Virus record (IMG/VR): IMGVR_UViG_3300032288_001605
Location: 1-55,792 of that record
DNA length: 55,792 nt
Direction: 5' to 3' (one strand)
Origin: a virus
Taxonomy: Duplodnaviria; Caudoviricetes
The notes under the pieces are model-generated. The model was not told the origin of the DNA. It saw only the letters and a list, made by a program, of their open reading frames with translations, and did not search any database. Below are positions 1 to 55,792 of this stretch, piece after piece. Position numbers and translations under genes: made by a program. The first letter of the stretch is position 1. Every line of letters starts with the position of its first letter.

Positions 1-448
1 TACAGGAATGGAAGCCAACACCCTCGTTCTTGGTTACGATGTTTTCAAGTCTCTTAAGAATCACCCAGACTTGGTTGACCGTATCAAGTACACATCTTCA
101 CAGACCATTACAACCGACATGCTCGCGGCAATGTTTGACATTCCTCGCGTTATGGTTGCTAAGGCAGTTAAGGCAACAAACAAAGAAGGTATCGCAGATG
201 CTTATGGCTTTGCTTTCGGCAAGGGCGCTCTTCTTACCCACGTTGCTCCACAGCCGGGTCTACTAACACCATCCGCTGGTTACACATTCTCATGGACTGG
301 CGTATCAGGCGGACTTGGCGCAACAATCGGAACTTCACAGTTCCGTATGGAATCCATCAAGTCTGACCGTGTTGAAGCAGAAATGGCTTTCGATAACAAA
401 GTCATCGGTGCTGACCTCGGTTACTTCTGGAACACAATCGTCGCTTAG
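1..448 (+). CDS. Major capsid protein, C-terminal part (5'-truncated by window)
   Basis: Open from the window start; NTLVLG...LKNHP motif and C-terminal 'GYFWNTIVA' resemble lambda gpE-like capsids; followed by a terminator and head/fibre genes. Confidence 0.75.
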   Translation, partial: TGMEANTLVLGYDVFKSLKNHPDLVDRIKYTSSQTITTDMLAAMFDIPRVMVAKAVKATNKEGIADAYGFAFGKGALLTHVAPQPGLLTPSAGYTFSWTGVSGGLGATIGTSQFRMESIKSDRVEAEMAFDNKVIGADLGYFWNTIVA

Positions 449-22000: not shown

Positions 22001-23075
22001 TTTGGAAGAACAAAAATCATTTGAATCTGCTCTACAGGGACGTATTAAAGGTTTCTTTGGCGCTATTACTGATTTGACTGACAAAGATTCCGAGGCTGTC
22101 ATCAGAGTCATCAAGACGGCTAATGGTTTAGTTATCACGCAAGTCAAAGAGAGTGGTTCGGGCATTGACAAATTAATGAAACAAATGCAAGAGCGTCTCA
22201 CTTCTATCCGCAATTTTGCTCGCAATGCTGAAGCATTATTAGCCAAGGGACTTAATCCAGAATATATTAGAGAGTTACTCGAGGCGGGACCAGAAGCCGC
22301 CGCTTCAACTCTTGAGGCTTTGGCTGGCGCGAGCGGCTCACAAATTTCTGCAATTAACAGTATGTTCCAAGAAGTTAGAAGTATAAGCGGAGGGCTTTCT
22401 TCTCGTTTTGGAACAGCATTCTATGGTTCTGGAGTTGCCGCCGCGCAAGGAATCGTTACTGGCGCAAAGTCACAATTGCAATTTCTTGATAATCAAATGA
22501 AACAAATTGCCGATGGCATGGCTGAAGTCTTAAAGCCATTGCTCAATAAGAATTTCAAAGATTTAGGTACCGATGCTATTGCCGCACTTGTCAAGGCAGA
22601 TGAAGACAGGTTGAAAAACATTGATGACCAGATGGCAATTTTCGTTGCCGCTATCGATACAGCATTAACTCCATTACGCACTCTTGGAGCCGATGTTGGA
22701 GATGATTTAATTCAAGGAACTATTGACGCATTGAAGAAGAAGCAACTGGAATTGGCTAACTTGATGGCAACAATCGCCGCCTCAATTTCGGGTCCAATGG
22801 CACAAGCCGCAGGTTCTATCGGCATGGTTATTGCGCAATTAGCGGCTCTGGATGCGGCAAAGAAACTTTATGCTGAAAGTAGTTTTACTGATACAGGAGT
22901 TGTAACACCTACGCCAACCTTTACCCCCGACAGTAAAAAAGATGTAGACAATTCAATTAATATTTCAGGAGATGTTGTTTTGAAACTTAACGAGCCTGTT
23001 TCTGGAGTTGACCTAAACGCTGTAGACCAATTTGTTGATAAGTTCTGGCTATCAGTTAATGCAAGGAATCGATAA
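19044..23075 (+). CDS. Tape measure protein
   Basis: 1343 aa, Ala-rich and helical with hydrophobic segments (MNPVGLIIAGV); follows the chaperones. Confidence 0.9.
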   Translation: MAETVVEILAKFRAETAEFNRKLTEVQGELSKMRDGVTQSASDMSNSFGVFESAANKAAVAAGTFAAVAGGALIAMGVQSFNAASRVDELDVALQAVGWSTGKGYEALQDAALAVKAMGIEMEIAQKSVLKYAQNNLDLASASKVARVAQDLAVIGGVNSSDAYDRLTHAIITGRSEVLKSVGIQKSAGQAYADYAREIGKTTKQLTYQEKQAAVLNLVLKEGERVAGTYEAAMTSPGKVLRSFARITNELQVAMGSALIKAFGPMILQTYELYKNLVKLVSEGGRFYPVIQTIGAVLTNLATPLTNALQKAVEFTKGLNGVAKSADEAKTRAEGLVPFMERLGTEMQRFLPVLAAVSAALATFGGQNLLKQVPILGSFLGAFNPFLVGLTVLIALSPKLRTAFMDLLESLKPLIPVFLTVGAVIVDVLNIALNYAAVAITALSKAITFSIEFVKRYATVFKILAGVFGIVTVAIMAYLLQVKILNAYTAITNFLFNKKTGVLARLTLAWKKLNLVMKMNPVGLIIAGVTALIAGFVILWNNSEAFRKIIIAVGKAGVTGIGALIQVIGQLAVGLIKINTGPLRLLLKGLDLLGVDAAGKALRGMDNMTENVGKFFQDAGEKVKGFADKLDGLEKKRFKLPKFDSEFKMPKFDEKGLFKGLGKFGGEDEEGVNATGLTDAAIKAQDALRSVVQKYNDFINNDFMPGFTKGGEAARDTIIKGLDMLKNVFDEKGKGLKGAALKSLQDRFYAINEQVRSFIPQAMEIADAFKEVTDALEKAQDELEAAIKDRNEASAQIGLLFAMPFGEPSRIQRAMGATTATVDSIISQYDEIIALVEKRFIGIDPKKKDSLVEYLKNQTQGLVDLANERAKLVDNLVELRRKQEDALQMRATGADSLLEMFSSTFGRPSEWNNALIGAEATVDSIASLYDRLVTAVNNRYAGFDEASRNTMLEYIKKETQAIYALAIERESAVRVLEQAQNSLQDILEEQKSFESALQGRIKGFFGAITDLTDKDSEAVIRVIKTANGLVITQVKESGSGIDKLMKQMQERLTSIRNFARNAEALLAKGLNPEYIRELLEAGPEAAASTLEALAGASGSQISAINSMFQEVRSISGGLSSRFGTAFYGSGVAAAQGIVTGAKSQLQFLDNQMKQIADGMAEVLKPLLNKNFKDLGTDAIAALVKADEDRLKNIDDQMAIFVAAIDTALTPLRTLGADVGDDLIQGTIDALKKKQLELANLMATIAASISGPMAQAAGSIGMVIAQLAALDAAKKLYAESSFTDTGVVTPTPTFTPDSKKDVDNSINISGDVVLKLNEPVSGVDLNAVDQFVDKFWLSVNARNR

Positions 23076-31864: not shown

Positions 31865-33051
31865 AAGCCAATATCAATGTAGGACAGGTTGCGTCAGTTC
31901 CTCTTGCATCATTAAATTCATATCCGCTCAATCCGCGCCGCGGAGATATTGAAGCGATTGCTCAATCACTCAAAGCCCATGGTCAGTACAGACCTATCGT
32001 CGTGCAGTACGGGTCGAATTACATTCTCGCTGGTAATCACACCTATAAGGCGGCAAAGAAACTAGGCTGGAAGAAAATCAAGATTACCTATGTGGATGTA
32101 AGTGAGGAGCAAGCCAAACAAATCGTGCTCGCTGATAATCGACTCACCGACCTTGCAACCTATAACGAGCCGATGCTCAAGAATCTTTTAACTTCACTAC
32201 CTGACCTTGAAGGAACGGGATTCTCTGAAGCCGATGTAGCCAATCTGGATAGATTGATTTCGGGTCTGGATAACGAGCCTGTAGGGGGAACAAAGTCTTT
32301 ACCGAAAGACCCTGAAGTAAAGATTGCGGCATGGCGATTTACGGTCGAGACAGATGCCTTCAAAGCATGGGAAGAGCAGGTCATTACTGAGTTCGGAAAG
32401 TCGCGCTCTAAAGTCATATCAGGAATCAAACTTCGCCTCGGATTCCCAGAGCGTAAGCCTGTTATTGAAGATACCCTTTCAGAGCGTTCTAAGGCTGACC
32501 CTAGCGATGTAGAGACAGTTTCGGTCAATGAGATATCGACTCATCCTCTCAACCCAAGAGAAGGCGATATTGGACAGATTATCGAATCGCTCAAGACCAT
32601 GGGTCAATATCGACCAATTGTGGCTAATCGAAAGACCAAGAATGTCCTCTCGGGTAATCACACACTTCAAGCCGCGGTCGCCCTTGGATGGGAGAAGGTG
32701 GCAGTTCACTGGGTCGATGTAGATGAGATTGAAGAAATCCGTATCCTTATCGTGGATAACAGGACAAGCGACCTTGCAACCTATGATTCCGCTGAGTTGA
32801 ACAAACTTCTGACAAGTGCGGTCATCAATGGAACAGGATTCACCCGTGAAGATGTCATGGAGATTCTTTCAGGGGGTAAGACAAAGCCGGGGCATAACCC
32901 AGTAGGGCGAACCAATATCCGCGTCGGTTCATACTCCATGAGAGTTCACACTGAAGATTTGAATGAGTGGGCAAACGCTATCTATAACTGGCAAGATGTC
33001 GCTCAACTATTACAGATACCGCTTGAAGCATGTACAACAGAGGTAGAATAA
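31861..33051 (+). CDS. Protein with two tandem ParB/Srx-like domains
   Basis: PLNPR-x-GDI...SLK-x-x-GQYRPIV...GNHT...LGW-x-K...DNR-x-x-DLATY occurs twice. Confidence 0.85.
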   Translation: MKANINVGQVASVPLASLNSYPLNPRRGDIEAIAQSLKAHGQYRPIVVQYGSNYILAGNHTYKAAKKLGWKKIKITYVDVSEEQAKQIVLADNRLTDLATYNEPMLKNLLTSLPDLEGTGFSEADVANLDRLISGLDNEPVGGTKSLPKDPEVKIAAWRFTVETDAFKAWEEQVITEFGKSRSKVISGIKLRLGFPERKPVIEDTLSERSKADPSDVETVSVNEISTHPLNPREGDIGQIIESLKTMGQYRPIVANRKTKNVLSGNHTLQAAVALGWEKVAVHWVDVDEIEEIRILIVDNRTSDLATYDSAELNKLLTSAVINGTGFTREDVMEILSGGKTKPGHNPVGRTNIRVGSYSMRVHTEDLNEWANAIYNWQDVAQLLQIPLEACTTEVE

Positions 33052-33059
33052 ACCCCACT

Positions 33060-33614
33060 ATGAGTTCAAAAGATACTACTAAGCCTACGAAGGCTAAGAA
33101 AGCCCCTGCCCCTAAAGAGACTAAGACCAAGATTGAAACAAGAGGTCGCAAGACTGAGTTAAAAGAAGAAATAATAGAAAACATTATGAAGCATATCCGT
33201 AAGGGTATCCCTATTAAGACTGCCGTAGGCATGGCTGGTATCTCTGAAAGTACCTTTTTTAGTTGGATGAAAAGGGGTAATGATGAGCAATATCGGATAA
33301 GCAAAGGGGAAAAGCCCAATCCGAAAGAAACTTTATTTCTGGAATTTCTGGAGTCTGCTACGCGGGCGAGAGAAGAGGCTAAGGGCGCTCATATAGGGGT
33401 TATAGCCAATGCTGGAGCGCAAGGAGATTGGCGAGCCTCTGCATGGTGGCTATCCCGCCAATTCAGAGAAGAGTTCGGCGATAACCCAACACCTCAAGTA
33501 AATAACATAACTAACAACACGCTCAATATCGGCACAAGCATGTCTGAATTACAGACCCTTATCGCTGAAATCAAAGAGCGACGAATAAGGGTTATTGATG
33601 CCCCGTCTGATTGA
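33060..33614 (+). CDS. Terminase small subunit
   Basis: RGRKT...AGISESTFFSW...DWRASAWWLSR; directly before TerL. Confidence 0.75.
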   Translation: MSSKDTTKPTKAKKAPAPKETKTKIETRGRKTELKEEIIENIMKHIRKGIPIKTAVGMAGISESTFFSWMKRGNDEQYRISKGEKPNPKETLFLEFLESATRAREEAKGAHIGVIANAGAQGDWRASAWWLSRQFREEFGDNPTPQVNNITNNTLNIGTSMSELQTLIAEIKERRIRVIDAPSD

Positions 33615-35196
33615 TGAGTTCTATTCGCTGACCGATGAAGAGCAAGAAGCATTAGCGGAGGTCATGACGGATGAGCAAAAAGATACTCTCGCCTTACTTC
33701 TCAACGCAGAGAAAACAAACCCATGGGCTAAATACGAATCCGACCCAGTAGCATTTATTGAACATGGATTAGGTGAAACTCTTTGGTCTAAACAGCGAGA
33801 GATTCTTGAGAGCGTTAGAGATAACAAACGAACAGCAGTTCCCGCATGTCACGCTCCCGGAAAGTCTCACCTTGCCGCAAGAGCCGTTGCATGGTGGATG
33901 TCAGTTCATCCTCCCGGAACCGCAATTGCAATTACAACAGCGACAACTTTCAAACAAGTAAGAAATATTATGTGGGCGCAGATTCGTAGAGTTCACATGT
34001 CACATAATCTTCCGGGAGAAATTCTTACTACTGAATGGAAGATGGATGACACAGTTGTTGCCTATGGATTTCGTCCAGCCGATAACAATGAAGCGGCGCT
34101 ACAGGGTATCCACGCACCTAATCTTTTAATTGTGGTCGATGAAGCGGGTGGTATTTCAGACACAATCGGTCAAGCAATGGAAGCGCTCATGACGGGTGGA
34201 AACACAAGACTTCTTGTAGTTGGTAACCCACCGACTGACCAAGAGCAGACATGGTTCGAACGTATCTGTAATTCGCCTCTCTATAACACGATTTCTATTT
34301 CCGCTTTCGATACTCCAAACTTCACGGGAGAAGAGGCGGGTGATTGCAAGTCATGTCCGCAAACTACGGGCGCTCATTCAGTTTCATCACACTTAGTCGA
34401 TGAGCGATGGGTCAAAGATGTCATGTCGGAGTTCGGCGATGATTCGCCATTCGTTGAGGCTCGCGTCCATGCAAGATTTCCACAAACAGGAACAGGAAAG
34501 GTCATTCCGTATCAATGGGCTGAAGCCTCGATTGATAACGAGAGTCCACTTGAGGGCAACGAGATACGACTTGGAGTGGATATCGCTTCAGATGGTGGCG
34601 ATGAATTCGTTATCGCAAAAGCCGATGGATTCTCGGTCAAGATAGTTCACCGCTCTTCTGGGTCGGTCAATGCCAATGCCGTTGACGTTGCGGGGGTAAT
34701 CCTTCGCTTCATTCAAAGTGCGCAAGAGGAGCATGAGGCAAAGGGCATAAGTAAGCGCGTAAGGGTCAAAATAGACACGATTGGAGTTGGCTGGGGTGTT
34801 GTATCCATGCTCAAGACATGGGGGCAGGAGAGACGCCATAACGCCGAGATAATCGCTATCAATGTGGCAGAGCGTCCGAAAGACCAAACTAAATTCAAGA
34901 ATCAAAGAGCCGAGATGTGGTGGAATGCTCGCTCCCTTCTACAGCCAAGCGCTGAAGGTCGCCAAGATATCCGCCTCGAGGTCGACAGAGCAGTTCTAGC
35001 CCAGTTAGCAGGTCCAACCTATCTTTCAGATTCCTCGGGTCGTATCCAGATTGAATCAAAAGCCGATATGAAGAAGCGTGGCGTCTCCTCACCTGACCGC
35101 GCTGAAGCGATACTTCTCGCCTTGTATGAGAATAAGAATATAGTTGCGAGCATTAATCCGATTTCGATAGGACAGAGTAATCAGTGGAGCATGTAA
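33598..35196 (+). CDS. terL: Terminase large subunit
   Basis: ACHAPGKS (Walker A), IVVDEA (Walker B), GNP, LGVDIA, SPDRAEA. Confidence 0.9.
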   Translation: MPRLIDEFYSLTDEEQEALAEVMTDEQKDTLALLLNAEKTNPWAKYESDPVAFIEHGLGETLWSKQREILESVRDNKRTAVPACHAPGKSHLAARAVAWWMSVHPPGTAIAITTATTFKQVRNIMWAQIRRVHMSHNLPGEILTTEWKMDDTVVAYGFRPADNNEAALQGIHAPNLLIVVDEAGGISDTIGQAMEALMTGGNTRLLVVGNPPTDQEQTWFERICNSPLYNTISISAFDTPNFTGEEAGDCKSCPQTTGAHSVSSHLVDERWVKDVMSEFGDDSPFVEARVHARFPQTGTGKVIPYQWAEASIDNESPLEGNEIRLGVDIASDGGDEFVIAKADGFSVKIVHRSSGSVNANAVDVAGVILRFIQSAQEEHEAKGISKRVRVKIDTIGVGWGVVSMLKTWGQERRHNAEIIAINVAERPKDQTKFKNQRAEMWWNARSLLQPSAEGRQDIRLEVDRAVLAQLAGPTYLSDSSGRIQIESKADMKKRGVSSPDRAEAILLALYENKNIVASINPISIGQSNQWSM

Positions 35197-39617: not shown

Positions 39618-40172
39618 CTAAGCAATAACAATTTTGTAAGGCGGGGCAGTTTCAGCGTTATATTGGCTGGCAACATCTAAAGCCTTCAAAGCCCAAGCCC
39701 GCGCTTCTTTTTGAGTTAGCGAATCTCCGACCATGGTTGCAAGAGAGCCAAGGGCATACATGCCACCCGAACCGATTGCATAAATATTTCGGGCATCTTG
39801 TATCCATGAATAATCATCGCCGATTTCATAGATTCGACCGTTATAGGCAACGAGGAATTCGGATTCAGTGCTCGAAACTCCATCGGCGGTCTTCTCGTAT
39901 CCCGCTTCAGTAAATGCTTTACGCAGTGCAGGGATAAATAAATCAGTTATGAAATTCTCATCGGAGCGAACACTTACATCGCGCAATTTCAAACCGTTCT
40001 GGATGATATTGATTGCACGAACATCGCCCGCGCAAGCAATAGTCACCTCTTCCAGTTCGATAATCTTTGATTGATTCTTAGGTAACTGATAGATAGAACC
40101 CTCAGCGGTGACCCGAGAATCTGCCCCGAGAAGCGCCCAAGAGCGCCCCTGAATCCCCACGATTGTTGTCAT
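39618..40172 (-). CDS. Ntn-hydrolase, proteasome beta/HslV-like peptidase
   Basis: MTTI (N-terminal Thr), ADSR, KI, AG and AIGSGG-x-YALG motifs. Confidence 0.8.
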   Translation of the reverse strand: MTTIVGIQGRSWALLGADSRVTAEGSIYQLPKNQSKIIELEEVTIACAGDVRAINIIQNGLKLRDVSVRSDENFITDLFIPALRKAFTEAGYEKTADGVSSTESEFLVAYNGRIYEIGDDYSWIQDARNIYAIGSGGMYALGSLATMVGDSLTQKEARAWALKALDVASQYNAETAPPYKIVIA

Positions 40173-40188
40173 GGGGTAATCATAAGAG

Positions 40189-41124
40189 TCAGAGCAAAAC
40201 GCGCTCTGTAGGCAGAGCCATAAGCCCGAGTGCGGCGGCTTTCCATAGGCTGGGAGTTTCATCATCGGGTTGATATCCGCCTGACCCGCCCATAAGAATC
40301 GGGTGGTCTGGGAATTGCTTACGTATTGTCCGCATCGCTGACCAGTATCCAAGTTCGGTGTATTCCAAACTTGATAGCGGGTCTTTCTTGAGACCATCGG
40401 CTCCAGCGGCTACGAAAATCATCGTAGGTTGGAATTCGTTGCACAGTTCAAGAAACATATCGACAGCGGCAAACAAACCGTCATCGCCAGTTTTTGCGGC
40501 TACTGGATAGTTGTAAGCCCGATTCTTGTAATCAGATAAAAGACCAGTCCCCGGAAATATCCCATATTCGTGAACGCTGAATGTAAGAACATTTTTATTG
40601 CGTCGGGTTAAATCTTCCGTCCCGTCTCCATGGTGAGCATCTGCATCAAAGATTGCAATGCGTTGCTCATATTCGTTAGTTGCCTTCTTAGCGGCAATAG
40701 CGAAATCATTAAAGACACAGAATCCGCTTGAGTGGTCATAAGCGGCATGATGCTTGGCTCCTGCAAGATTGATTGCAAGTTTAGTTTTCATGTCTAGCAA
40801 AGTATCGAGTGCAGTGAGAGTTCCACCGACAAATAACTTTGCAAGGTCTCCAAGGTCATGACGCGGACCGACCCATTCATCTGATTCGCCACGTATCGTT
40901 ACGTCAAAGACATAATTCAATTCGTGAACCGAGTTTAGGTCTTCAGTTGAAGGAACCTGTGGCTCAATCTCCCAGACGTTTAAGCGACGCTCTTGAGCGG
41001 CAAGCATGATGTTGTTGCGACCCTTGAGAAACCTACGACCCTGCGTAGGGTGTCGTGAGTCGAATACCCAATTAGAATATTCGGGACTATGCACAAGAAT
41101 GGCATCTTCCATATTTCTAATCAT
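40189..41124 (-). CDS. Zn-dependent histone deacetylase / AcuC-family deacetylase
   Basis: HP, GAKHHA, GFCVFND, DADAHHGDGT, SVHE, FPGTG, GADG-x-x-x-DPL and GGSGGY. Confidence 0.92.
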   Translation of the reverse strand: MIRNMEDAILVHSPEYSNWVFDSRHPTQGRRFLKGRNNIMLAAQERRLNVWEIEPQVPSTEDLNSVHELNYVFDVTIRGESDEWVGPRHDLGDLAKLFVGGTLTALDTLLDMKTKLAINLAGAKHHAAYDHSSGFCVFNDFAIAAKKATNEYEQRIAIFDADAHHGDGTEDLTRRNKNVLTFSVHEYGIFPGTGLLSDYKNRAYNYPVAAKTGDDGLFAAVDMFLELCNEFQPTMIFVAAGADGLKKDPLSSLEYTELGYWSAMRTIRKQFPDHPILMGGSGGYQPDDETPSLWKAAALGLMALPTERVLL

Positions 41125-46840: not shown

Positions 46841-47179
46841 ATGCAATCCATGGATTTTGTTGAAGATGCTCCCTGCCGTGGAGCAGACCCATGGCTATTT
46901 GACCAATCGCAATTAGCGCTGGCAATTATCGGTTTGCAATATTGCGTTGAATGCCCATTCAAACAAGAGTGCATTGAGTTGGTCGAACCAAGCAAAAATT
47001 ATTTTGATGGAATATGTGGCGGAATTGTTTGGCAAAACGGTAGGGTATTGGCTAAGTTAGATACCGAGGTTAAAAACCGTTTAATCATAGGGGGTAATGA
47101 TGACACCGAGAATGAAGATGCCGTGGCAATTCGAGGGAGCAAGTTGTTGGGGTCTGGACACGGAGATGTTCTTCCCTGA
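46841..47179 (+). CDS. whiB: WhiB-family transcription factor
   Basis: C-x-x-x-DP-x-LF...C-x-x-CP-x-x-x-x-C...GICGG. Confidence 0.75.
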   Translation: MQSMDFVEDAPCRGADPWLFDQSQLALAIIGLQYCVECPFKQECIELVEPSKNYFDGICGGIVWQNGRVLAKLDTEVKNRLIIGGNDDTENEDAVAIRGSKLLGSGHGDVLP

Positions 47180-47372
47180 TAAGGGTGGCAGTGCAAAACA
47201 GATTAAAAAGATTTGCAAATCCTGTTACTGGACGAATGAATGTCTGACCTATTCGTTACATTACAGAGTGCAAGGAATCTGGGCGGGTACAAGTCCAGAT
47301 GACCGCGACATACTAAGAAAAAAACTAAACATAATCGCTAAACCAGTCACTAACGAAAGGTTCGTCGCATGA
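47112..47372 (+). CDS. whiB: WhiB-family transcription factor
   Basis: C-x-x-x-DTEMFFP...CKSC-x-x-x-x-x-C...GIWAG-x-x-x-x-x-R. Confidence 0.85.
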   Translation: MKMPWQFEGASCWGLDTEMFFPDKGGSAKQIKKICKSCYWTNECLTYSLHYRVQGIWAGTSPDDRDILRKKLNIIAKPVTNERFVA

Positions 47373-48201: not shown

Positions 48202-48354
48202 GTGTATGACGACTTCATTAAACGTGATGGCGTTATGTCTGTCCTATCGACTTTTGCTATCCAGACTCATGAATTATTTTCAGAGTTGATGAGAGCAGGA
48301 TTCACAGAGGAACAGGCTTTGAAGATTGTCATTGGATTATTCGCAAGGGATTAG
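48202..48354 (+). CDS. Small conserved protein (HELF-x-x-L-x-x-AGFTEEQAL), not in ORF track
   Basis: TATAAT just upstream of a GTG start; motif. Confidence 0.55.
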   Translation: MYDDFIKRDGVMSVLSTFAIQTHELFSELMRAGFTEEQALKIVIGLFARD

Positions 48355-48364
48355 GACGAGGTAT

Positions 48365-49777
48365 ATGGCACAGCCTGATTTTAAGGAACTCGGTTCTACT
48401 GGTTTACGTCGCTCGGGCGGAACAGTATTTGAAGAGTTTCTTACGACGCTCCGCGGAATCCGCGGCTCTCGCGTTTATCGAGAGATGGCTGATAACGACC
48501 CAACTATCGGCTCAATGTTATTTGCGATTGAGAAAGTTATTACTCGTCTTGAATGGCGTGTAGACCCATACAGCGATAGTTCGGCAGATGGCGATGTAAG
48601 TCCAGAGGATAAAGAAGTAGCAGATTTTGTTGAATCATGTTTGAACGATATGTCCGATTCATGGGACCAGACATTGACACAAATGCTTTCAATGTTGGTT
48701 TTTGGATATTCATATCACGAAATTGTTTATAAGAGACGTGGCGGCGATACTAACGATGCTAAGACTCGTTCTAAGTTCGATGATGGAAAAATTGGATGGC
48801 GTAAGTTGCCAATCCGTTCACAAGAAACTTTGTTCCGTTGGAATATTGATGATGACGGCGGAATCCAAGGAATGGTGCAAGTAGACCCATCCGCTGGAGG
48901 CATTCATACAATTCCAATCGAGAAGGCTTTGCTATTCCGCACGACCACTCAAAAGAATAACCCTGAAGGTCGTTCAATTCTTCGTAATGCTTATCGCCCT
49001 TGGTATTTCAAGCGCCGTATTGAAGAGATTGAAGCAATTGGTATCGAGCGCGATTTAGCGGGTCTTCCAGTTGCCTACGTTCCACCTGAGTTTCTATCGA
49101 GCACCGCTTCAGTTGACCAACAACAAGTTTTGCAGAGCATTATCTCTATTGTTCAAAACGTTAAGCGTAATGAGCAAGAGGGCGTTGTTATGCCAGCGAT
49201 GTACGACGAGGCTGGTCACAAGATGTTCGACCTTCAGTTGCTCTCATCTGGAGGTTCACGTCAATTTGATACCGACAAAGTAATTCAGCGCTATGACCAA
49301 CGCATGGCGATGTCGATTCTTTCTGACTTTATTCTTCTCGGTCATGACCGCGTAGGTTCATACGCACTCGGTTCATCAAAGATGGACTTATGGTCAATGG
49401 CGGTAGATGCAATTGCAAAGAGCATTGCAGAAGTTATGAATCAGTACGCAATTCCTCGTTTGTTAAAACTAAACGGAATGGATACTTCTCGTTCTCCATA
49501 TTTAACATACGGTGAAGTAAGCCATGTTGATTTAACAGAGATTGCAGATTTCGTAACGAAACTTGCTCAATCTGGAGTTCTCGTTCCAGACCCAAAGTTG
49601 GAAGATTACTTACGCGACTTAGCGGGATTGCCACCAGCCGAACACGATGGACAAAACTTCGGAATGCCTCCAATGCCTAGCGACGTTGGTATGGAACCCG
49701 GGGAAGTTCAAACGGGTCAACCTGAGCAGTTAGATATCGCTGAGGGAACGGAACCACTTGATGGCGACTTGGATTAA
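48365..49777 (+). CDS. Portal protein (Mu gp29/DUF935-like)
   Basis: FGYSYHEIVYK, NNPEGRSILR-x-AY-x-x-W-x-FK, GIERDLAGLP and GSYAL motifs; GAGG RBS before ATG 48365. Confidence 0.88.
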   Translation: MAQPDFKELGSTGLRRSGGTVFEEFLTTLRGIRGSRVYREMADNDPTIGSMLFAIEKVITRLEWRVDPYSDSSADGDVSPEDKEVADFVESCLNDMSDSWDQTLTQMLSMLVFGYSYHEIVYKRRGGDTNDAKTRSKFDDGKIGWRKLPIRSQETLFRWNIDDDGGIQGMVQVDPSAGGIHTIPIEKALLFRTTTQKNNPEGRSILRNAYRPWYFKRRIEEIEAIGIERDLAGLPVAYVPPEFLSSTASVDQQQVLQSIISIVQNVKRNEQEGVVMPAMYDEAGHKMFDLQLLSSGGSRQFDTDKVIQRYDQRMAMSILSDFILLGHDRVGSYALGSSKMDLWSMAVDAIAKSIAEVMNQYAIPRLLKLNGMDTSRSPYLTYGEVSHVDLTEIADFVTKLAQSGVLVPDPKLEDYLRDLAGLPPAEHDGQNFGMPPMPSDVGMEPGEVQTGQPEQLDIAEGTEPLDGDLD

Positions 49778-49780
49778 TCC

Positions 49781-50830
49781 ATGCCATTCAAATTCACTCC
49801 GTCCATTCAGAAGCGACGTAATCCGCTAACCCCAGAGGAAGCCGCTCTTGCTCGGGTTATCTATGATGCGATTCAACGCGCTACAAGCGAATTGAAGGTA
49901 ACGCAGTTAGCCCGCATTATCGAATCTCTGGACCCAGACACTCTCAATCGTCTACTGTCTTCCATAACACTTGGCAAAGATGCACAACGCATTGAACAGT
50001 CAATTCTTCAATCAATTGATATCGGTGGCTCTGAAGCCATTTCAGAATTACGCAGTATTGCCAATCGTTTAGTTCGACCTAGTTTCGTACCAACGAAAGT
50101 TGATGTTACTAATCCGAAAGAGATGCGCCGATTAGAGGGAACAAAGATTCCAGCATGGGCGAGTTCAACTACACCTAAAGTAACTATGAATATCGCTTTT
50201 GATGCAACTAATCCTAATTCGCTTTTCTATGCTCAAAGACGAGCCGCTGAATTAATTAAATCTATTGATGAGTACACACGCATCGCGGTGCGTCAGATAA
50301 TCATTGAATCTTTCAATGACAAAGTTGACTACAAGACAACGGCTAATCGAATTAAAAACATTGTTGGACTTCATCCGCAATGGGCTGACGCAGTTATAAA
50401 GTTTGAAAAGCGCGAGATGAGGCGTCTGCAACGAGAAGGCTTTACAGATGCCAAGGCTCGCTCACTTACCGAGAAGCGCACCTCTGATTACTCCAATCGC
50501 CTACGCAGTGCGCGAGCGACCATGATTGCTCGAACTGAAATACAGATTGCTCAGAACGAGGGACGTTTCGAGAGTTGGAAGCAAGCCGCTCGCCAAGGCT
50601 TTGTTGACCCAGCGGCTCAAAAGATGTGGATTATCGCTAATGATGAACGCACATGCGATATCTGCCTAGAGTTAGATGGCGAAGTTGTTGGATGGCTCGA
50701 TACATTCTCCAATGGATTAGAACGCCCTATCGCTCATCCTAATTGCCGATGCACAATGAAACTTCTTCCACCCGAGAAATATCAGGATATTTATTTCGAG
50801 GAAACTTACGGAGATGAATTCCTTGATTAG
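49781..50830 (+). CDS. MuF / head morphogenesis (minor capsid) protein
   Basis: RATMIARTE...K-x-W...DERTC-x-x-C-x-x-LDG...P-x-x-HPNCRC. Confidence 0.9.
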   Translation: MPFKFTPSIQKRRNPLTPEEAALARVIYDAIQRATSELKVTQLARIIESLDPDTLNRLLSSITLGKDAQRIEQSILQSIDIGGSEAISELRSIANRLVRPSFVPTKVDVTNPKEMRRLEGTKIPAWASSTTPKVTMNIAFDATNPNSLFYAQRRAAELIKSIDEYTRIAVRQIIIESFNDKVDYKTTANRIKNIVGLHPQWADAVIKFEKREMRRLQREGFTDAKARSLTEKRTSDYSNRLRSARATMIARTEIQIAQNEGRFESWKQAARQGFVDPAAQKMWIIANDERTCDICLELDGEVVGWLDTFSNGLERPIAHPNCRCTMKLLPPEKYQDIYFEETYGDEFLD

Positions 50831-51578
50831 CACAATTCGATTTGAATATGGCTTGAAGCCTGTATTGAAGCATCAAGAACATGACCAATCCAGTCATGGC
50901 AATTGGGCAACTGGCAAAAAGGGTGGCAGTGGATTAAGCCATCGAGAAATGTTTGAATTAAAACGCAATCGCCTAGACCCTATGGTAAAAAAAGTTTATG
51001 AGGCGGAAGAAAAGAATCATAACCAGATTCAAAATAAAAATATAGAACAACCGTCTGCGCCAATTCGTTCATCCTTTACTACTTTTGACGAGTACGATAA
51101 AGCATACAAAAAATATTCAAAAGACTTTCTCGATTGGTCAAAGAAAGTTACGACCGCTGTTATATCTCCTATTGCGGAAAAGCATTTGGACGGGACACCT
51201 ACGGGGGTCAGGGGATATGTTGGAGAAGTGTTACGAGCAGATTGGTTCGTTGAGCAATTTGGAAACGGTGGCAGTGCTGGAAACCCTGAAGTAAAGGTTT
51301 CATCTACTAGCGCGGCTGGCTCATATCAAATTGGATTTAAGGGAGACAAACCCTTGAGCATTTTGTCAGTAAATAGAGGCTATTCAAAAGCCGAACCTAA
51401 TATTGTTCACGAAATCGCTCACTACGCTACAACGATTAGTGCGACTGCACCGCATGATGGTCACGGAGTAGAGTTCGCACGAAACCATATATTTATTGCA
51501 GGTAAAGTAATGGGGCAAAGTTTTGCAGATGGACTTGCAAACGCTTACAGAGAGTCGGGTGTTCCTCTTGGAGACTAA
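50814..51578 (+). CDS. HDQ-tagged protein with zincin-like metallopeptidase domain
   Basis: KHQEHDQSSHGNW tag; IVHEIAH...HG-x-EF (HExxH plus downstream H). Confidence 0.7.
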   Translation: MNSLISTIRFEYGLKPVLKHQEHDQSSHGNWATGKKGGSGLSHREMFELKRNRLDPMVKKVYEAEEKNHNQIQNKNIEQPSAPIRSSFTTFDEYDKAYKKYSKDFLDWSKKVTTAVISPIAEKHLDGTPTGVRGYVGEVLRADWFVEQFGNGGSAGNPEVKVSSTSAAGSYQIGFKGDKPLSILSVNRGYSKAEPNIVHEIAHYATTISATAPHDGHGVEFARNHIFIAGKVMGQSFADGLANAYRESGVPLGD

Positions 51579-52305
51579 AGATTATGGTTGGGAGATTGTT
51601 GACCCAATTCATCCCGATTTAATACCTGAGCCATTTGAAGAAGAGTTCAAAAAACACGGCACACACGACCAAAAGACTCATGGAAATTGGTCTACGGGTG
51701 AGTCCGTACCAGATATCAATGAATGGAACAAGGCTGAGTTGGCTAAGTATCCATCAAGAGAAGCGCAAGAGTCTTATCTGTTAGATAATATTTTGAGTCA
51801 GCGCGTTCAAGGGTTTACGGGTAGAGAATTTTATTCAGCCGTTGAAAAATATCAAACATTACTTGGTTATAAGATGAATGAAGCGCTTCGTGACCCCCAA
51901 ATAAGTACAGACCAACTTGCCTATGAAATCGCTGGTTTAGATGGTGCAATTGAATCTGCCCCACCGTTAAAATCTGATGTAACCGTCTATCGCGGAATTA
52001 AAGGAAATGGATTAGATTTCTTTGAAGGACTTAAAAAAGGTGACGTTTATACAGATAAAGGTTTTACCTCAACAACTCTTGATACCAATGTGGCTACAAA
52101 GTTTTCAGTACAGGGGGATATGTACCAAGGTATTGTTCTTCGCATGAAATTGCCAGCAGGTACAAAAGGTCTCTATCCAACGAGTGTTACTGGATTAACT
52201 TCGTTATCCTCAAGAGAGGCAGAGTTCCTTCTCCCTCGAGATAGCAAATTCAAAATTCTTAGCAATGAAGGTAAAGTGTGGGATGTGGAGGTAGTCAATG
52301 ATTGA
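51568..52305 (+). CDS. HDQ-tagged ADP-ribosyltransferase (Vip2/Alt-like, R-S-E clade)
   Basis: KHGTHDQKTHGNW tag; Y-x-MN-x-x-LR, VYRG, GFTSTT and EAEFLLPR. Confidence 0.85.
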   Translation: METKDYGWEIVDPIHPDLIPEPFEEEFKKHGTHDQKTHGNWSTGESVPDINEWNKAELAKYPSREAQESYLLDNILSQRVQGFTGREFYSAVEKYQTLLGYKMNEALRDPQISTDQLAYEIAGLDGAIESAPPLKSDVTVYRGIKGNGLDFFEGLKKGDVYTDKGFTSTTLDTNVATKFSVQGDMYQGIVLRMKLPAGTKGLYPTSVTGLTSLSSREAEFLLPRDSKFKILSNEGKVWDVEVVND

Positions 52306-54112
52306 GAATTTTGGATATGACTCATCTAAAGGCTTATCTGTTGTTCTTGAGAAACACGGCACCCATGACCAATCAAGCCATGGTAATTGGGCTAGAGGAA
52401 TTTCATTAGACCCCAAGGTTGCCGCAAGCATTCTCAACAGAGTCAAAGAAAATGGCGGACTCTCCGTCAACATGGTCGATGGCTCTGAGCCTACGACTGG
52501 ATTCATGGTCGCCAAGGGCAAGCAATATGGGAGAATCGTAAAGGCTGAAGATTTCTACGATTCTGAGCGTGGTCCTGAAATTCTGTATCAGTACATGAAA
52601 GCCAATAAATCTGACCTTGCAACGGGGAAAAACTACCTCGGTTTATGGCATAATACGGAAGATAACCAAGTTTATTTAGATGTCTCGGAAAATATCCAAG
52701 ATAGAGAGAGGGCTACCAGCGCAGGTCGGGAACGTGACCAAATTTCGATTTGGGATGTTGTTAACTTCGCTGAAATAGATACGGGAGGAACAGGCAGTGT
52801 CGGAAAACAAAGAAATCAAAGTGGCGGAAATCAATCCAAATATCGCGGAGATGACGGACGAGGAATTACGGGAGTACGCCAAGGTTCTCTGGGAGAAGAT
52901 GGCAAAGCCCAAGTAATTCGTTTTGCCTTTGGTCTAAAGCCAGTCTTTAAGCATGAGGGTGGCGGTCACGACCAGAGTACACATGGTAATTGGGCTAAGG
53001 CTGGATACACGGAGTCTGAAGCCGAAGGAATTTCGCGTTATGAAAACTTGGGACCAACTACTCAAGACCTAGATAATATTCTTGATGGTGTTTCTATGGC
53101 TGACTATGACACTTTGTCAGAGTTTGTCTTGAACGACGGCGACCAGTATGAATTAATGGTTGAATACGGAGACCTAGAATCTCGGGTTGCAGATGCAATA
53201 GCCAAAAGAGAATCTATTCTTGGAAGGGAGATATCCGCTCAGGAACGAGCAGATATCTATGCCGCTGAACAAGCCTATGCGGTAAAGAATTACGTTCTAG
53301 AGAACGAAACTGATATTAATAATATTCGCAATGAACAATTGGGATTAAAAGATGACCCAACAGAATTCTTGCCTTCTTTTAATGATGTCTATGGAATAGA
53401 GTTTGATGCAACATTATCTGACGGTACTGAAGTCAGAATGAGTACAGAGATGGAATCTATTGATGTAACCACAGATGGCATATTCCTTGAAGGAAGCGTT
53501 ACTGCTGATGGAATGCAGATAGGTCGAGTTGAACGTGTCTTATTCCGAGAAAATGGCGTGTGGAATGTTGAGCACAAATGGTTTGATGTTGAAGACGAGT
53601 ACCAAGGCACAGGTTTCGGAAAAGCATTCCTCAAGCAACAAGAAGATTATTACACCGCTAAAGGTTTTGGCTACATTAAAATCATGGCTGGACTAGAAGA
53701 TGGCGCTCGCCACTGGGCTAGGGCTGGTTTTGACTTCAATCCACAATATTTAAGTAATGATTTGAGAAGTTTGAAAATGTCTGCCGAGTCCAGACTTTCT
53801 TCTTCAGACCTAGAAAAGTTTATGGAAATCTATGACCGAGGATTTGATTCTGCCTCTGGCAGAGTAAAGGATTACAGAGCAGATGATTTCCCATTCCCTG
53901 CCGAATTTGCCAATTTAGGTTGGGAAAATCGACAGGTCGTAGGCGGCGAATATCAATGGGCTGGAAAGACTTTAATGATAAACATGGTGCAGGAGTACGT
54001 TAAGCCCCTAACAGCCGAGGGCAGGAATCTGCTCTCTGGTCCAATTGACCGAGATGGCGATGGTCTGGTTTATGACGGAACTATGCGCGAGCGCCCTGCT
54101 CCCAATAAATAA
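52298..54112 (+). CDS. Two-module HDQ-tagged polyprotein with C-terminal GNAT acetyltransferase-like domain
   Basis: Two tags; module 1 has YLGLW...VYLDVS...QISIWD; module 2 has EYQGTGFG...GARHWARAGF. Confidence 0.75.
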   Translation: MIENFGYDSSKGLSVVLEKHGTHDQSSHGNWARGISLDPKVAASILNRVKENGGLSVNMVDGSEPTTGFMVAKGKQYGRIVKAEDFYDSERGPEILYQYMKANKSDLATGKNYLGLWHNTEDNQVYLDVSENIQDRERATSAGRERDQISIWDVVNFAEIDTGGTGSVGKQRNQSGGNQSKYRGDDGRGITGVRQGSLGEDGKAQVIRFAFGLKPVFKHEGGGHDQSTHGNWAKAGYTESEAEGISRYENLGPTTQDLDNILDGVSMADYDTLSEFVLNDGDQYELMVEYGDLESRVADAIAKRESILGREISAQERADIYAAEQAYAVKNYVLENETDINNIRNEQLGLKDDPTEFLPSFNDVYGIEFDATLSDGTEVRMSTEMESIDVTTDGIFLEGSVTADGMQIGRVERVLFRENGVWNVEHKWFDVEDEYQGTGFGKAFLKQQEDYYTAKGFGYIKIMAGLEDGARHWARAGFDFNPQYLSNDLRSLKMSAESRLSSSDLEKFMEIYDRGFDSASGRVKDYRADDFPFPAEFANLGWENRQVVGGEYQWAGKTLMINMVQEYVKPLTAEGRNLLSGPIDRDGDGLVYDGTMRERPAPNK

Positions 54113-54138
54113 CCAACTATGGTAAGATTTGAGGTGAT

Positions 54139-54285
54139 ATGAACAGAGAAGAAAAACTAGAGGCTATCCGTGAGGCTTATGCCGAATGGGAAAAGTTGGC
54201 TACATTTGTAAAACTAGACAGAGCCACGCCTGAAGATGAGGAGAAGATTTATGACAAACTTTTCAACATCATTCAAGAAAAGTAA
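54139..54285 (+). CDS. Small acidic helical protein (not in ORF track)
   Basis: GAGGTG RBS; MNREEKLEAIREAYAEWEK..., 48 aa. Confidence 0.55.
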   Translation: MNREEKLEAIREAYAEWEKLATFVKLDRATPEDEEKIYDKLFNIIQEK

Positions 54286-54322
54286 AGTGCGGTTGTATTT
54301 CTATGGCGTATCCTTATAACCT

Positions 54323-55792
54323 ATGGCTCACATTGCATCGAAGATTCTCGGATTAAGCGCAGATAAACTCCACGCGCTTCATGAGCGCATTCATAAATCT
54401 GAGGCTACTCCAGCGGCTATTGAAGTCCATCATGTCATTCTCAATGAGATGGGTCGTCGTGGAATTGAAAGACCACAAGACGATTGGAACGAGTTCGAAA
54501 TCGTTGTTGATTCCATGGAGGGTGTTGACCTCCTCGAGTTCTCAAAACAATTACCTCAAGAAGTTGTTAAAGATATCGTTCAAAAAACTGGCTCGACTTA
54601 TGGTGACGTAAAGACCGTTCTCACGGTCAACGGCTACGAGATGCGGGTCAGTAAAGAGATTCTCGAAAAGACTATCCGTCATGAAAGCGGCAAGTACGTT
54701 GTTTATAACGAAGCCCTCAGTCGCAAGTTTGGCAGTTACGATACAAAGCAAGAAGCCGAGGAAAGATTGCGTCAGATTGAGCAATTCTCCAAAGCCTCAT
54801 ATTCACCTCCACAAGCCGTCAGGGAAGCCGCTAGACGCGCTCTGGCATGGATTGATGAGGGCAAGGCTGGAAGTGGCTTCACGGGCGTTGGAAGGGCTAG
54901 AGCAAACCAATTAGCGGCGGGCAAGTCGCTATCCCTTGACACCATGAAGCGAATGAAGTCTTTCTTTTCTCGCCATGAAGTGGATAAGAAAGCCCTCGGA
55001 TTCTCCAGAGGGGAAAAGGGATATCCAAGCGCTGGTCGAGTTGCGTGGGATGCGTGGGGCGGAGATGCTGGATTCGCATGGGCTGAAGCCATGGTCGCTG
55101 AATCAGAAAAAGAAGTTTCTAAACATAATCAAGGTCAACATGACCAAAAGACCCATGGAGCATGGGCTGACAATATTGCGAACGATATTTTGGCTGGCAA
55201 ACATCCAGAGGTTGAACCAGAGAATGTTTCAGCGCTATTCATGGGTATGGCAAAACGCCAAGACCATCCAGATATCACTGAGTTAAAAGTTCAAGGCACA
55301 TTGCTATTCGGCGATGAAGGTATGGGCATTGCAAGAAAAGATATGCCACAGATTCCTGCCGAAGAGCGCGACCGATTCCTTGCAGATTTAGCAAAGGATG
55401 GAGTTAAGACAACAGAGGAAAGTATTGACCCGAAGACATTGAAGCCAATCCAAAAGGAAGTTTCAGGTTCTCGTTCTGGAGCAATTTATAACCGTTACCG
55501 TAAGGCTGGAGAGATTCCAGAACAACAAAGAATTTTAGTATCACGCGATGGATTCGTTATTGACGGTCACCATACATGGGGTGCGGCAGTTGCATTCTCA
55601 TTTGATAATCCAAGTGCGACGCTTCCAATCTACAGATTAGATATGGATGCTAAAGAAGCATTAGGTACTTCTCTCGAATGGTCCAAAGCCAATGGTTTTG
55701 AAAGCCAAGCCATTGATGCAAAGAAATCACGAATTCTAGAAACCTTTGAAAAGCACGGCACTCATGACCAAAAGACTCACGGCAATTGGTCA
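54323..55792 (+). CDS. Modular head-associated polyprotein, 3'-truncated (not in ORF track)
   Basis: Open to the window end; modules after Lys: ILEK|TIRHESG..., FSK|ASYSPP...AWDAWGGDAG, VSK|HNQGQHDQKTHGAW + ParB-like (ILVSRDGFVIDGHHTW), FEK|HGTHDQKTHGNW. Confidence 0.8.
   Translation, partial: MAHIASKILGLSADKLHALHERIHKSEATPAAIEVHHVILNEMGRRGIERPQDDWNEFEIVVDSMEGVDLLEFSKQLPQEVVKDIVQKTGSTYGDVKTVLTVNGYEMRVSKEILEKTIRHESGKYVVYNEALSRKFGSYDTKQEAEERLRQIEQFSKASYSPPQAVREAARRALAWIDEGKAGSGFTGVGRARANQLAAGKSLSLDTMKRMKSFFSRHEVDKKALGFSRGEKGYPSAGRVAWDAWGGDAGFAWAEAMVAESEKEVSKHNQGQHDQKTHGAWADNIANDILAGKHPEVEPENVSALFMGMAKRQDHPDITELKVQGTLLFGDEGMGIARKDMPQIPAEERDRFLADLAKDGVKTTEESIDPKTLKPIQKEVSGSRSGAIYNRYRKAGEIPEQQRILVSRDGFVIDGHHTWGAAVAFSFDNPSATLPIYRLDMDAKEALGTSLEWSKANGFESQAIDAKKSRILETFEKHGTHDQKTHGNWS

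Follow-up and report, generated by a model that had tools for sequence, protein, structure and literature searches.

A recurrent HDQ peptide header on unrelated modules beside phage head genes, a probable, hitherto undescribed, mark of head-carried proteins

Which proteins a tailed phage loads into its head and injects, and how they are chosen, is known for only a few model phages. The question is raised anew by the IMG/VR virus record IMGVR_UViG_3300032288_001605 (Duplodnaviria; Caudoviricetes), analysed here over its whole length of 55,792 bases (the window), where a short His-rich peptide, hereafter the tag, recurs ahead of unrelated enzyme modules downstream of the genes for the portal and the MuF-like head morphogenesis protein. 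A first-pass annotation of this DNA had read the tag as a capsid-loading or ejection signal exposed by Lys-specific cleavage by a maturation protease. We report that the tag is a real peptide header shared by unrelated, head-linked modules, and that it probably serves as a label, so far undescribed, of what the phage head carries; two parts of the original interpretation are not supported, i.e. the tie to MuF, which is not required, and the additional module starts after Lys.

The window was scanned in six frames with the regular expression KH.{2,4}HDQ..HG[NA]W, which gave exactly six matches (50868-55789), all on the plus strand, in four open reading frames (ORFs) downstream of the portal and MuF genes, and none elsewhere; the looser cores HDQ..HG and H[DE]Q..HG returned the same six and nothing more (Table 1). 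At the DNA level the pattern CAYGAYCARNNNNNNCAYGG was matched six times; 100 dinucleotide-preserving shuffles averaged 0.01 matches, and 0/100 reached six. The six copies in four ORFs noted at first pass are thereby upheld, and the same is true of the leader IRF-x-x-GLKPV(L/F)K common to two of them (it precedes tags 1 and 4) and of the truncation of the sixth, which ends at 55789 in an ORF that is still open at 55792. Between pairs of window copies the 27 bases of the core are 67-89% identical and synonymous codons vary, which argues that the conserved entity is the peptide and that selection acts on it. A recent DNA repeat as the source of the copies was rejected because the codons differ.

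IMG/VR was scanned with the pattern CAYGAYCARNNNNNNCAYGGNAAYTGG, giving at least 239 stretches on at least ~109 contigs (counted by hand), with up to 12 matches in one 16-kb locus. The matches listed comprise 266 unique stop-to-stop segments with 367 tags in 314 unique contexts, and the IMG/VR-derived counts below hold among them. The consensus of the 314 contexts reads (V/L)-K-H, then G-(E/D/T) or L-x-G-Q, then H-D-Q-x-(S/T/E/D)-H-G-(N/S)-W-A-x-G, with Trp in 97%, the Ala in 92% and the later Gly in 72%. Asn is found at its position in 76% of the contexts, a value inflated by the search pattern, and is replaced by Ser in 17%, for which reason self-cleavage of Asn at G-N-W was dropped as a candidate. 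The spacing from K-H to HDQ is two residues in 194 contexts, four in 102, five in 4 and twelve in 1, and the window holds both two- and four-residue spacers. The leaders before K-H are variable, yet types recur and some begin at Met1: one is M-K-V-I-K-F-x-P-G-L-x-P-V-L-K-H (the IRF-GLKPV type), another M-S-R-F-x-T-x-x-L-D-G-I-E-I-x-R-A-K-D-V-K-K-H and a third F-x-Y-D-S-x-x-G-L-S-x-V-x-x-K-H. We regard the tag as the invariant core of a header of ~20-35 residues that consists of a variable short leader, K-H, a spacer of two or four residues, the core and a Gly-rich linker, and which, tentatively and with slightly less than even confidence, would mark proteins and polyprotein modules destined for the phage head.

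Contig L017 (13-4506, minus strand) encodes a 1497-amino-acid polyvalent protein with three ADP-ribosyltransferase (ART) matches, in which the joint word K-Y-S-x-DQERDDHGR(F/W) occurs five times. The same protein has one canonical HDQ tag, ahead of its last, HExxH-bearing module, and by their letters the two words seem to be versions of a single kind of header.

A single tag is present in 196 of the 266 segments. In the 198 left-closed segments the first tag lies a median of 39 residues past the upstream stop, while at least 53 residues (median 249) follow the last tag in the 129 right-closed ones, and the distance from tag to tag has a median of 201 residues (n=101). The 120 listed database proteins, with 2-8 tags each, have the first tag at a median residue of 22.5, and no fewer than 91 residues come behind the last. 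Typically the tag stands some 20-40 residues past an ORF start or at a joint within a polyprotein. The tag belongs to the domain-size module that follows it, and among the segments and proteins examined it is always N-terminal and never C-terminal.

A profile of the tag (A5; 100 tag stretches of 42 residues each) retrieved 853 proteins at E<=0.01 among 8000 candidates scored (90% clusters). In 1.84 billion 50% clusters it retrieved 1021 representatives at E<=0.001, 335 of them at <=1e-10 and 42 at <=1e-30. The top hits are very long, e.g. P0136 with 7059 residues and 20 tag stretches, P0137 with 3023 residues and 10, and P0138, whose 2201 residues are nine tag-plus-ART units in a row (9 tags, 9 ART matches). 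NCBI is the source of 3 of the 120 listed proteins, and their names are "hypothetical protein", GNAT-type or "TIGR04338 family", with mention of the tag in none.

In cellular genomes (one genome each for 185,579 species, 596 billion bases) the scan gave 36 stretches, where ~35 are expected by chance (computed for both strands at equal base use, with 15 positions fixed and 5 two-fold). No more than 4 of the 36 proved to be real in-frame tags (one each in L233 and L246, two in L256), with a variant form in L237, which suggests that the tag is a feature of free phage contigs and not of prophages in sequenced genomes. The cellular records with the tag or its variant are labelled Actinomycetes, Actinomycetota, actinobacterium or Streptosporangium. 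WhiB-like genes are described as a key actinophage indicator (PMC10202952, in part), and an actinobacterial host fits the window, since it has a WhiB-family match and its closest cultured portals, ~58% identical, are from Arthrobacter phages. The hosts are likely Actinobacteria, probably uncultured freshwater ones.

What follows the tag was studied both in the window and among its relatives. The HExxH peptidase predicted behind tag 1, in the first cargo ORF (ORF1), proved well founded: H199, E200 and H203 are invariant across nine relatives (alignment A3), the match to TIGR04338 is weak (1.3e-6), and the AlphaFold2 (AF2) model has a mean predicted local distance difference test (pLDDT) value of 82.6 and a predicted template modelling (pTM) score of 0.79. 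In this model residues 1-29, i.e. leader and tag, fall below a pLDDT of 50 beside the confident enzyme body, which argues that the header is a disordered linear motif. A Foldseek search of the model against the PDB returned nothing at E<=0.001, with only weak likeness to SPRTN (6mdw) and jannalysin (4jix). The ART expected behind tag 2 is clear from its family match (ORF2; Table 1); the start of its ORF is either the TTG at 51523 or the ATG at 51529. Likewise, the first module of ORF3 is the domain of unknown kind that had been announced, having phrog_17808 (residues 67-161) as its sole family match.

Two further assignments of the first-pass annotation survive in part. For the GNAT behind tag 4 the signal is weak (NCBIfam E 0.01 at residues 429-492 of ORF3; PF00583 at 0.0037 in relatives) and nothing stronger was obtained. 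The ParB-like module behind tag 5 has an Atlas feature score of 0.94 to the ParB_N and ParBc_2 clusters (template modelling score 0.74-0.81) and no Pfam match, and neither this module nor the first one of ORF3 had a PDB sequence match at E<0.5. As for the claim that additional modules of the last polyprotein start after Lys (ILEK, FSK), these positions fit an indel of ~50 residues relative to L045 and say nothing on cutting. By tblastn, ORF3 has matches in 125 loci, and ORF5 matches giant virion proteins of Pseudomonas phages. The 48-amino-acid ORF between the two polyprotein genes has no family match in Pfam or PHROG, and could be an immunity or chaperone-like partner.

Among relatives, the post-tag modules of at least 60 residues number 343 and fall into 66 single-linkage clusters. 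The 34 of the 66 representatives that are not cut by a locus end were scanned against Pfam, and 14 had a match at E<=0.01, several of these under Pfam's own cut-off, while 20 had none. The matches are to GNAT (4), ADPrib_exo_Tox, ART-PolyVal, Arr-ms, SprT-like, ATLF-like zincin (2), Zeta_toxin, DUF3626, DUF7178 and Hva1_TUDOR. For pre-tag parts of at least 80 residues, 8 of 39 representatives had a match (Peptidase_S78, the end of Phage_Mu_F, ART (2), GNAT, HAD, TUDOR and ATLF-like). Moreover, the post-tag modules differ, and the order of modules varies, between related phages.

The tag is found where head proteins are encoded. Portal, MuF, protease, scaffold, capsid or terminase genes are present in 23 of the 24 locus groups of at least 4 kb, the exception being a 4-kb contig, so that the tag occurs in head-gene neighbourhoods and not, as would have told against the original proposal, mainly outside them. 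The window begins within the C-terminal part of the capsid gene and ends within the last cargo ORF; the stretch from cassette to capsid is therefore missing, and the cut lies ahead of the site where relatives carry a protease gene. A close relative, L056, has a portal ~75-80% identical and a capsid end 94% identical to those of the window. Its ORF5 homologue has 744 residues, with a small-alarmone-synthetase-like module (8vx3, 3.6e-10) after the sixth tag. The L056 cassette is followed by an XkdF-like protease (PF14550, 2.2e-11), a tagged TUDOR protein, an 88-residue ORF, a 260-residue scaffold-like protein, a 131-residue protein and the capsid gene (PF03864).

In L025 (7644-9134, plus strand) and L045 (11672-13528, plus strand) a tagged polyprotein ends in XkdF as its C-terminal module, after the ParB-like module and with no tag at the joint. 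In P0036 XkdF is N-terminal (residues 50-166), with a tag behind it at residue 173 and then three more modules. A second lineage, of HK97 type, has the order TerL, portal (PF04860), S78 protease fused to a tag and one to three tagged modules, and capsid (PF05065); members with the S78-tag fusion are L017, L134, L052, L180 and L216.

Protease and MuF were surveyed in the 29 tag-bearing records of at least ~30 kb, taken from the ~109 contigs. XkdF was matched in 18 and S78 in 2 (20/29 with either), and MuF in 23. Among the 13 records of at least 90% completeness, a protease was matched in 11 (9 XkdF, 2 S78) and MuF in 11; the two without a MuF match, G002 and G008, are exactly the S78 phages, and they carry tags. 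MuF is therefore not required. Of the two near-complete records with no protease match, G022 is cut at the cassette like the window. Fusions of MuF are found in other tag-bearing contigs, with the MuF end before the tag in L201 and MuF at the C-terminus in P0117 and P0148. In G004 (complete, 62 kb) two small tagged proteins are encoded after TerL, ~18 kb from the main cassette. These proteins (L268:1570-2178 and L268:2196-2705, both minus strand; 202 and 169 residues) each combine a helical-looking leader with a tag (HGSGDQ in one of the two) and an extended linker of low complexity.

By its portal, ~59% identical to that of the window, Arthrobacter phage Laroye is among the closest cultured relatives, and MuF, an XkdF fusion and a like scaffold are present. 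Its gp18 (L232:14381-15502, plus strand) is annotated as RNA ligase and has, by eye and in comparison with the L056 protease, an XkdF-like C-terminal half; to judge by this likeness the annotation probably misses a prohead protease. The scaffold-like proteins of L056 (4689-5471, minus strand), L025 (9708-10496, plus strand) and Laroye (gp24; L232:17524-18366, plus strand) share the N-terminal word ETSGVDHPAHL(H/S)EGW and are otherwise diverged. This word, which we take to be similar to how S78-type protease domains end, may point to a protease-scaffold gene that has been split. The idea that the tag is homologous to the N-terminal scaffold motif ETSGVDHPAHLHEGW was dropped, since in L025 Ser replaces one of the His residues that the two have in common.

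What, then, would read the header? Tags stand at every joint of the polyproteins and directly after protease domains, which gives them the look of a processing site. Single-module ORFs keep the header as well, which points to a role as an address beyond polyprotein cutting; these ORFs have leaders of 11-40 residues, the removal of which would have no obvious use unless the header had acted first. Both sets of facts can be reconciled if the prohead protease, or some other component of the core, docks at the header. Accounting for them in this way, we suggest, at close to but below an even chance, that the header is read by the head-assembly machinery, most likely the prohead protease, for loading and cutting. 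The disordered header would be bound by a prohead component, most likely the S78-clan protease (of XkdF type in the lineage of the window), and the binding would carry tagged proteins into the assembling prohead. After assembly, a protease cut at or near the header would free separate enzyme modules (zincin, ART, GNAT-like and ParB-like; alarmone synthetase-like in relatives), which would leave with the DNA at infection. Binding, loading, cutting, the position of the cut and injection are what we infer, and a cut between the Lys and His of K-H is a conjecture drawn from the motif. The stronger form of this reading, in which the header is a portable, lineage-wide code such that a protein beginning with it is bound by an S78-clan protease, loaded, cut free and injected, we regard as rather unlikely. 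Complex prediction for XkdF (A1, 12 rows) with a 60-residue leader-tag peptide (A2, 14 rows) scored 0.00 and is uninformative on binding; the AF2 model of the S78-tag fusion of L017 (A6, 5 rows) has a mean pLDDT of 46, too low to place the tag relative to the active site.

Several observations weigh against the protease as reader, or against the proposal as a whole. K-H is present in 301 of the 314 contexts and absent in 13, in P0117 all four tags have Y-H instead, and the joint word of L017 has K-Y. Near-invariance of ~10 residues exceeds what is usual for a protease site, so the reader may not be a protease, and since S78-clan proteases are common in tailed phages their co-occurrence with the tag is weak evidence. 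G016 (101 kb, rated 100% complete) carries tags and MuF with no S78 or XkdF match, and the first 265 residues of ORF5 bear no tag. No tag was found in the plus frames of the first 24.4 kb of Laroye, which hold its head genes, so the same head machinery works without it. Our searches found no cultured tag-bearing phage. Specifically, tblastn of ORF1 against a cultured phage collection gave no match, nor did a 39-residue tag stretch against the phage collection, to which the low-complexity filter may have contributed; no tag was seen in five genes of Gordonia phage ChisanaKitsune (portal to gene 24, the ART gene included), and the MuF-ART fusion of Enterococcus phage AE4_2 has none either.

If the protease is not the reader, the header could be an address only, docking on the scaffold, the inner capsid or the portal in the manner of an encapsulin cargo peptide and staying on the mature protein. 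The long near-invariant motif with a flexible Gly-rich linker behind it would suit this role, as would its retention on single-module ORFs and its disorder in the ORF1 model. However, the tag co-occurs with two portal families (PF06074, PF04860) and two unrelated capsid families (PF03864, PF05065), so that no shared docking surface is evident, and tags placed after protease domains and between all modules of a polyprotein suggest cutting; we consider the address-only role improbable.

Cutting could alternatively be the task of the co-encoded zincin metallopeptidase, with no loading role for the tag. Processing by zincin-like peptidases has been proposed for polyvalent proteins (Iyer et al. 2017; PMC5512222, in part), the first cargo gene of the window is itself a tagged HExxH zincin, and SprT-like and ATLF-like modules recur after tags. 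Yet a full-length zincin of the ORF1 type, the one type counted, is present in only 10 of the 29 surveyed records and in 5 of the 13 with a completeness of 90% or more, the header is kept on single-module ORFs and on the zincin itself, and the ORF1 model does not put the tag in the active site, all of which leaves this explanation with a low probability.

Slightly less probable still is a role at ejection or after injection and not in assembly, the three His and one Asp of the tag forming a metal clasp, or the tag acting as a tail-passage signal or tether. The invariant H, H, D and H with the Trp would make a plausible metal site, by inference, but no tool result supports such a role, and it leaves both the linkage to the protease and the position at every joint unexplained. 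That the tag is mainly a recombination joint for cassette swapping, much as conserved motifs precede variable toxin tips in contact-dependent inhibition (CDI) and Rhs systems, is most improbable, for although different modules do follow the same tag in relatives and their order varies, the 27-base cores differ in codons and offer only short, poor DNA homology, which argues for selection on the peptide.

The reading as a docking motif for loading and cutting can be set beside known systems. Polyvalent proteins (Iyer, Burroughs, Anand, de Souza and Aravind 2017; PMC5512222, in part) are likewise strings of unrelated enzymes (ART, zincin, ParB-like, GNAT) encoded beside the portal and MuF genes, with predicted head packaging and processing. 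In the window, multiple unrelated domains stand on one polypeptide in ORF3 (at least two modules) and in ORF5 (at least three), and the packaging context is there, with portal and MuF directly upstream, TerS and TerL on the same record and zincin, ART and ParB-like modules in the cassette, which thus has the traits that define phage-type polyvalent proteins. Polyvalent proteins are one polypeptide, whereas modules of the window are often separate ORFs with their own headers. The words "HDQ" and "linker" are absent from the main text of PMC5512222, where a shared header on each module is thus undescribed.

The MuF polymorphic toxins (Jamet et al. 2017; PMC5576092) are similar in their variable MuF-associated modules, including ART and alarmone-synthetase types. 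In those systems MuF is fused to the toxin and the carrier is temperate; the MuF gene of the window ends at 50830 as a separate ORF (stop codon 50828-50830), sharing its final 17 bases with the next ORF in another frame, no integrase-like PHROG match was found among the 67 window ORFs scanned, and few cellular tags are real (4/36, above). With a free-standing MuF gene and no sign of a temperate phage, the cassette does not fit this class of toxins. The sole candidate for an immunity gene is the 48-residue ORF. "HDQ", "linker", "cleav" and "conserved motif" are absent from the main text of PMC5576092.

In phage T4 an N-terminal capsid-targeting sequence of ~10 residues loads foreign proteins into the head core (PMC9958956, in part), and Alt is a packaged, injected ART (PMC5512222, in part). 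The T4 sequence has no likeness to the tag, and its protease is T4 gp21, not S78 or XkdF; the T4 signal is said to be common to two internal proteins only, whereas the tag recurs in roughly a thousand protein clusters. In SPN3US the prohead protease cleaves ejection proteins, and many proteins inside the heads of giant phages undergo cutting at a short consensus ahead of ejection (PMC10052503 and PMC7411985, in part). The header of the window, a long invariant word after a short leader, is unlike the propeptides of the SPN3US/phiKZ type. The latter are long and dissimilar, and the cleavage word that follows them is short. Further functional models are the C-terminal encapsidation signal of the HK97 protease and the cargo peptides of encapsulins. 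None of the T4, SPN3US, HK97 protease, encapsulin or CDI/Rhs signals shares the sequence of the tag. The literature searched, which excluded subscription journals and supplements, yielded nothing on the tag, and "HDQ" combined with "phage" and "capsid" gave no paper.

The IMG/VR record, which is the whole window, is classed as linear with a CheckV completeness of 92%, and the genome is of siphovirus type (Table 1). Cargo ORFs overlap their upstream neighbours by 17 (50814-50830), 56 or 50 (51523-51578) and 8 bases (52298-52305), the frames being different; this arrangement suggests coupled translation, and no evidence of programmed frameshifting was seen at the overlaps. A second Cys-rich ORF (47097-47372, plus strand) overlaps the WhiB-like one (46841-47179). 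An HslV-family peptidase match (39618-40397, minus strand; phrog_1040, 4.5e-24) lies in the early leftward block and is unusual for a phage of this size.

Table 1. Tags, cargo ORFs and other features of the window.
Feature	Position	Strand	Basis or context
Major capsid protein, C-terminal end	2..448	+	phrog_1005 5.6e-43; 94% identity to L056 capsid gene
Tape measure	19044-23075		Family scan of window ORFs
TerS and TerL (small and large terminase subunits)	33030-35196		Family scan of window ORFs
Major tail protein, endolysin			Family scan of window ORFs
Gam, Erf, RusA, Mom-like protein, ParB, SSB			Family scan of window ORFs
WhiB-like Cys-rich ORF	46841-47179	+	phrog_472, 2.4e-7
Portal protein, Mu-type	48326..49777	+	PF06074 5.6e-44; phrog_113 1.2e-98
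MuF-like head morphogenesis protein	49781..50830	+	PF04233 1.1e-14; TIGR01641 2e-11; phrog_3517 4.8e-53
ORF1: leader, tag 1, Gly-rich linker, HExxH zincin (SprT/minigluzincin-like)	50814..51578	+	Alignment A3, TIGR04338, AF2
Tag 1, KHQEHDQSSHGNW, after leader IRFEYGLKPVLK	50868..50906	+	Regex scan; ORF 50814-51578
ORF2: leader of ~42 residues, tag 2, ADP-ribosyltransferase	51523..52305	+	PF03496 3e-19; phrog_3895 2.3e-14
Tag 2, KHGTHDQKTHGNW	51652..51690	+	Regex scan; ORF 51523-52305
ORF3 (604 residues): leader, tag 3, unknown module, IRF-GLKPV leader, tag 4, weak-GNAT module	52298..54112	+	
Tag 3, KHGTHDQSSHGNW	52352..52390	+	Regex scan; ORF 52298-54112
Tag 4, KHEGGGHDQSTHGNW, after leader IRFAFGLKPVFK	52949..52993	+	Regex scan; ORF 52298-54112
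Conserved 48-residue acidic ORF between polyprotein genes	54139..54285	+	tblastn: same place in 11 related loci
ORF5 (490 residues, cut by window end): untagged N-terminal part, tag 5, ParB-like module, tag 6	54323..55792	+	phrog_2859 9e-203
Tag 5, KHNQGQHDQKTHGAW, HGAW form	55121..55165	+	Regex scan; ORF 54323-55792
Tag 6, KHGTHDQKTHGNW, then window end	55751..55789	+	Regex scan; ORF 54323-55792

As to its kind, the header belongs with the targeting and processing signals of head-carried phage proteins, and is a new form of these within polyvalent-protein cassettes. To the picture of polyvalent proteins it would add what marks and separates the modules. It would also allow metagenomes to be searched, by sequence alone, for effectors that travel in the head and are probably injected, many of them outside known families, as the 20 of 34 module representatives that have no Pfam match indicate. 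Moreover, the header is a candidate tag for loading foreign proteins into capsids, and would give a handle on host takeover in phages of probably uncultured freshwater Actinobacteria. If the portable code were true, the injected effectors of uncultured actinophages would be readable from sequence, and foreign proteins could be loaded at will.

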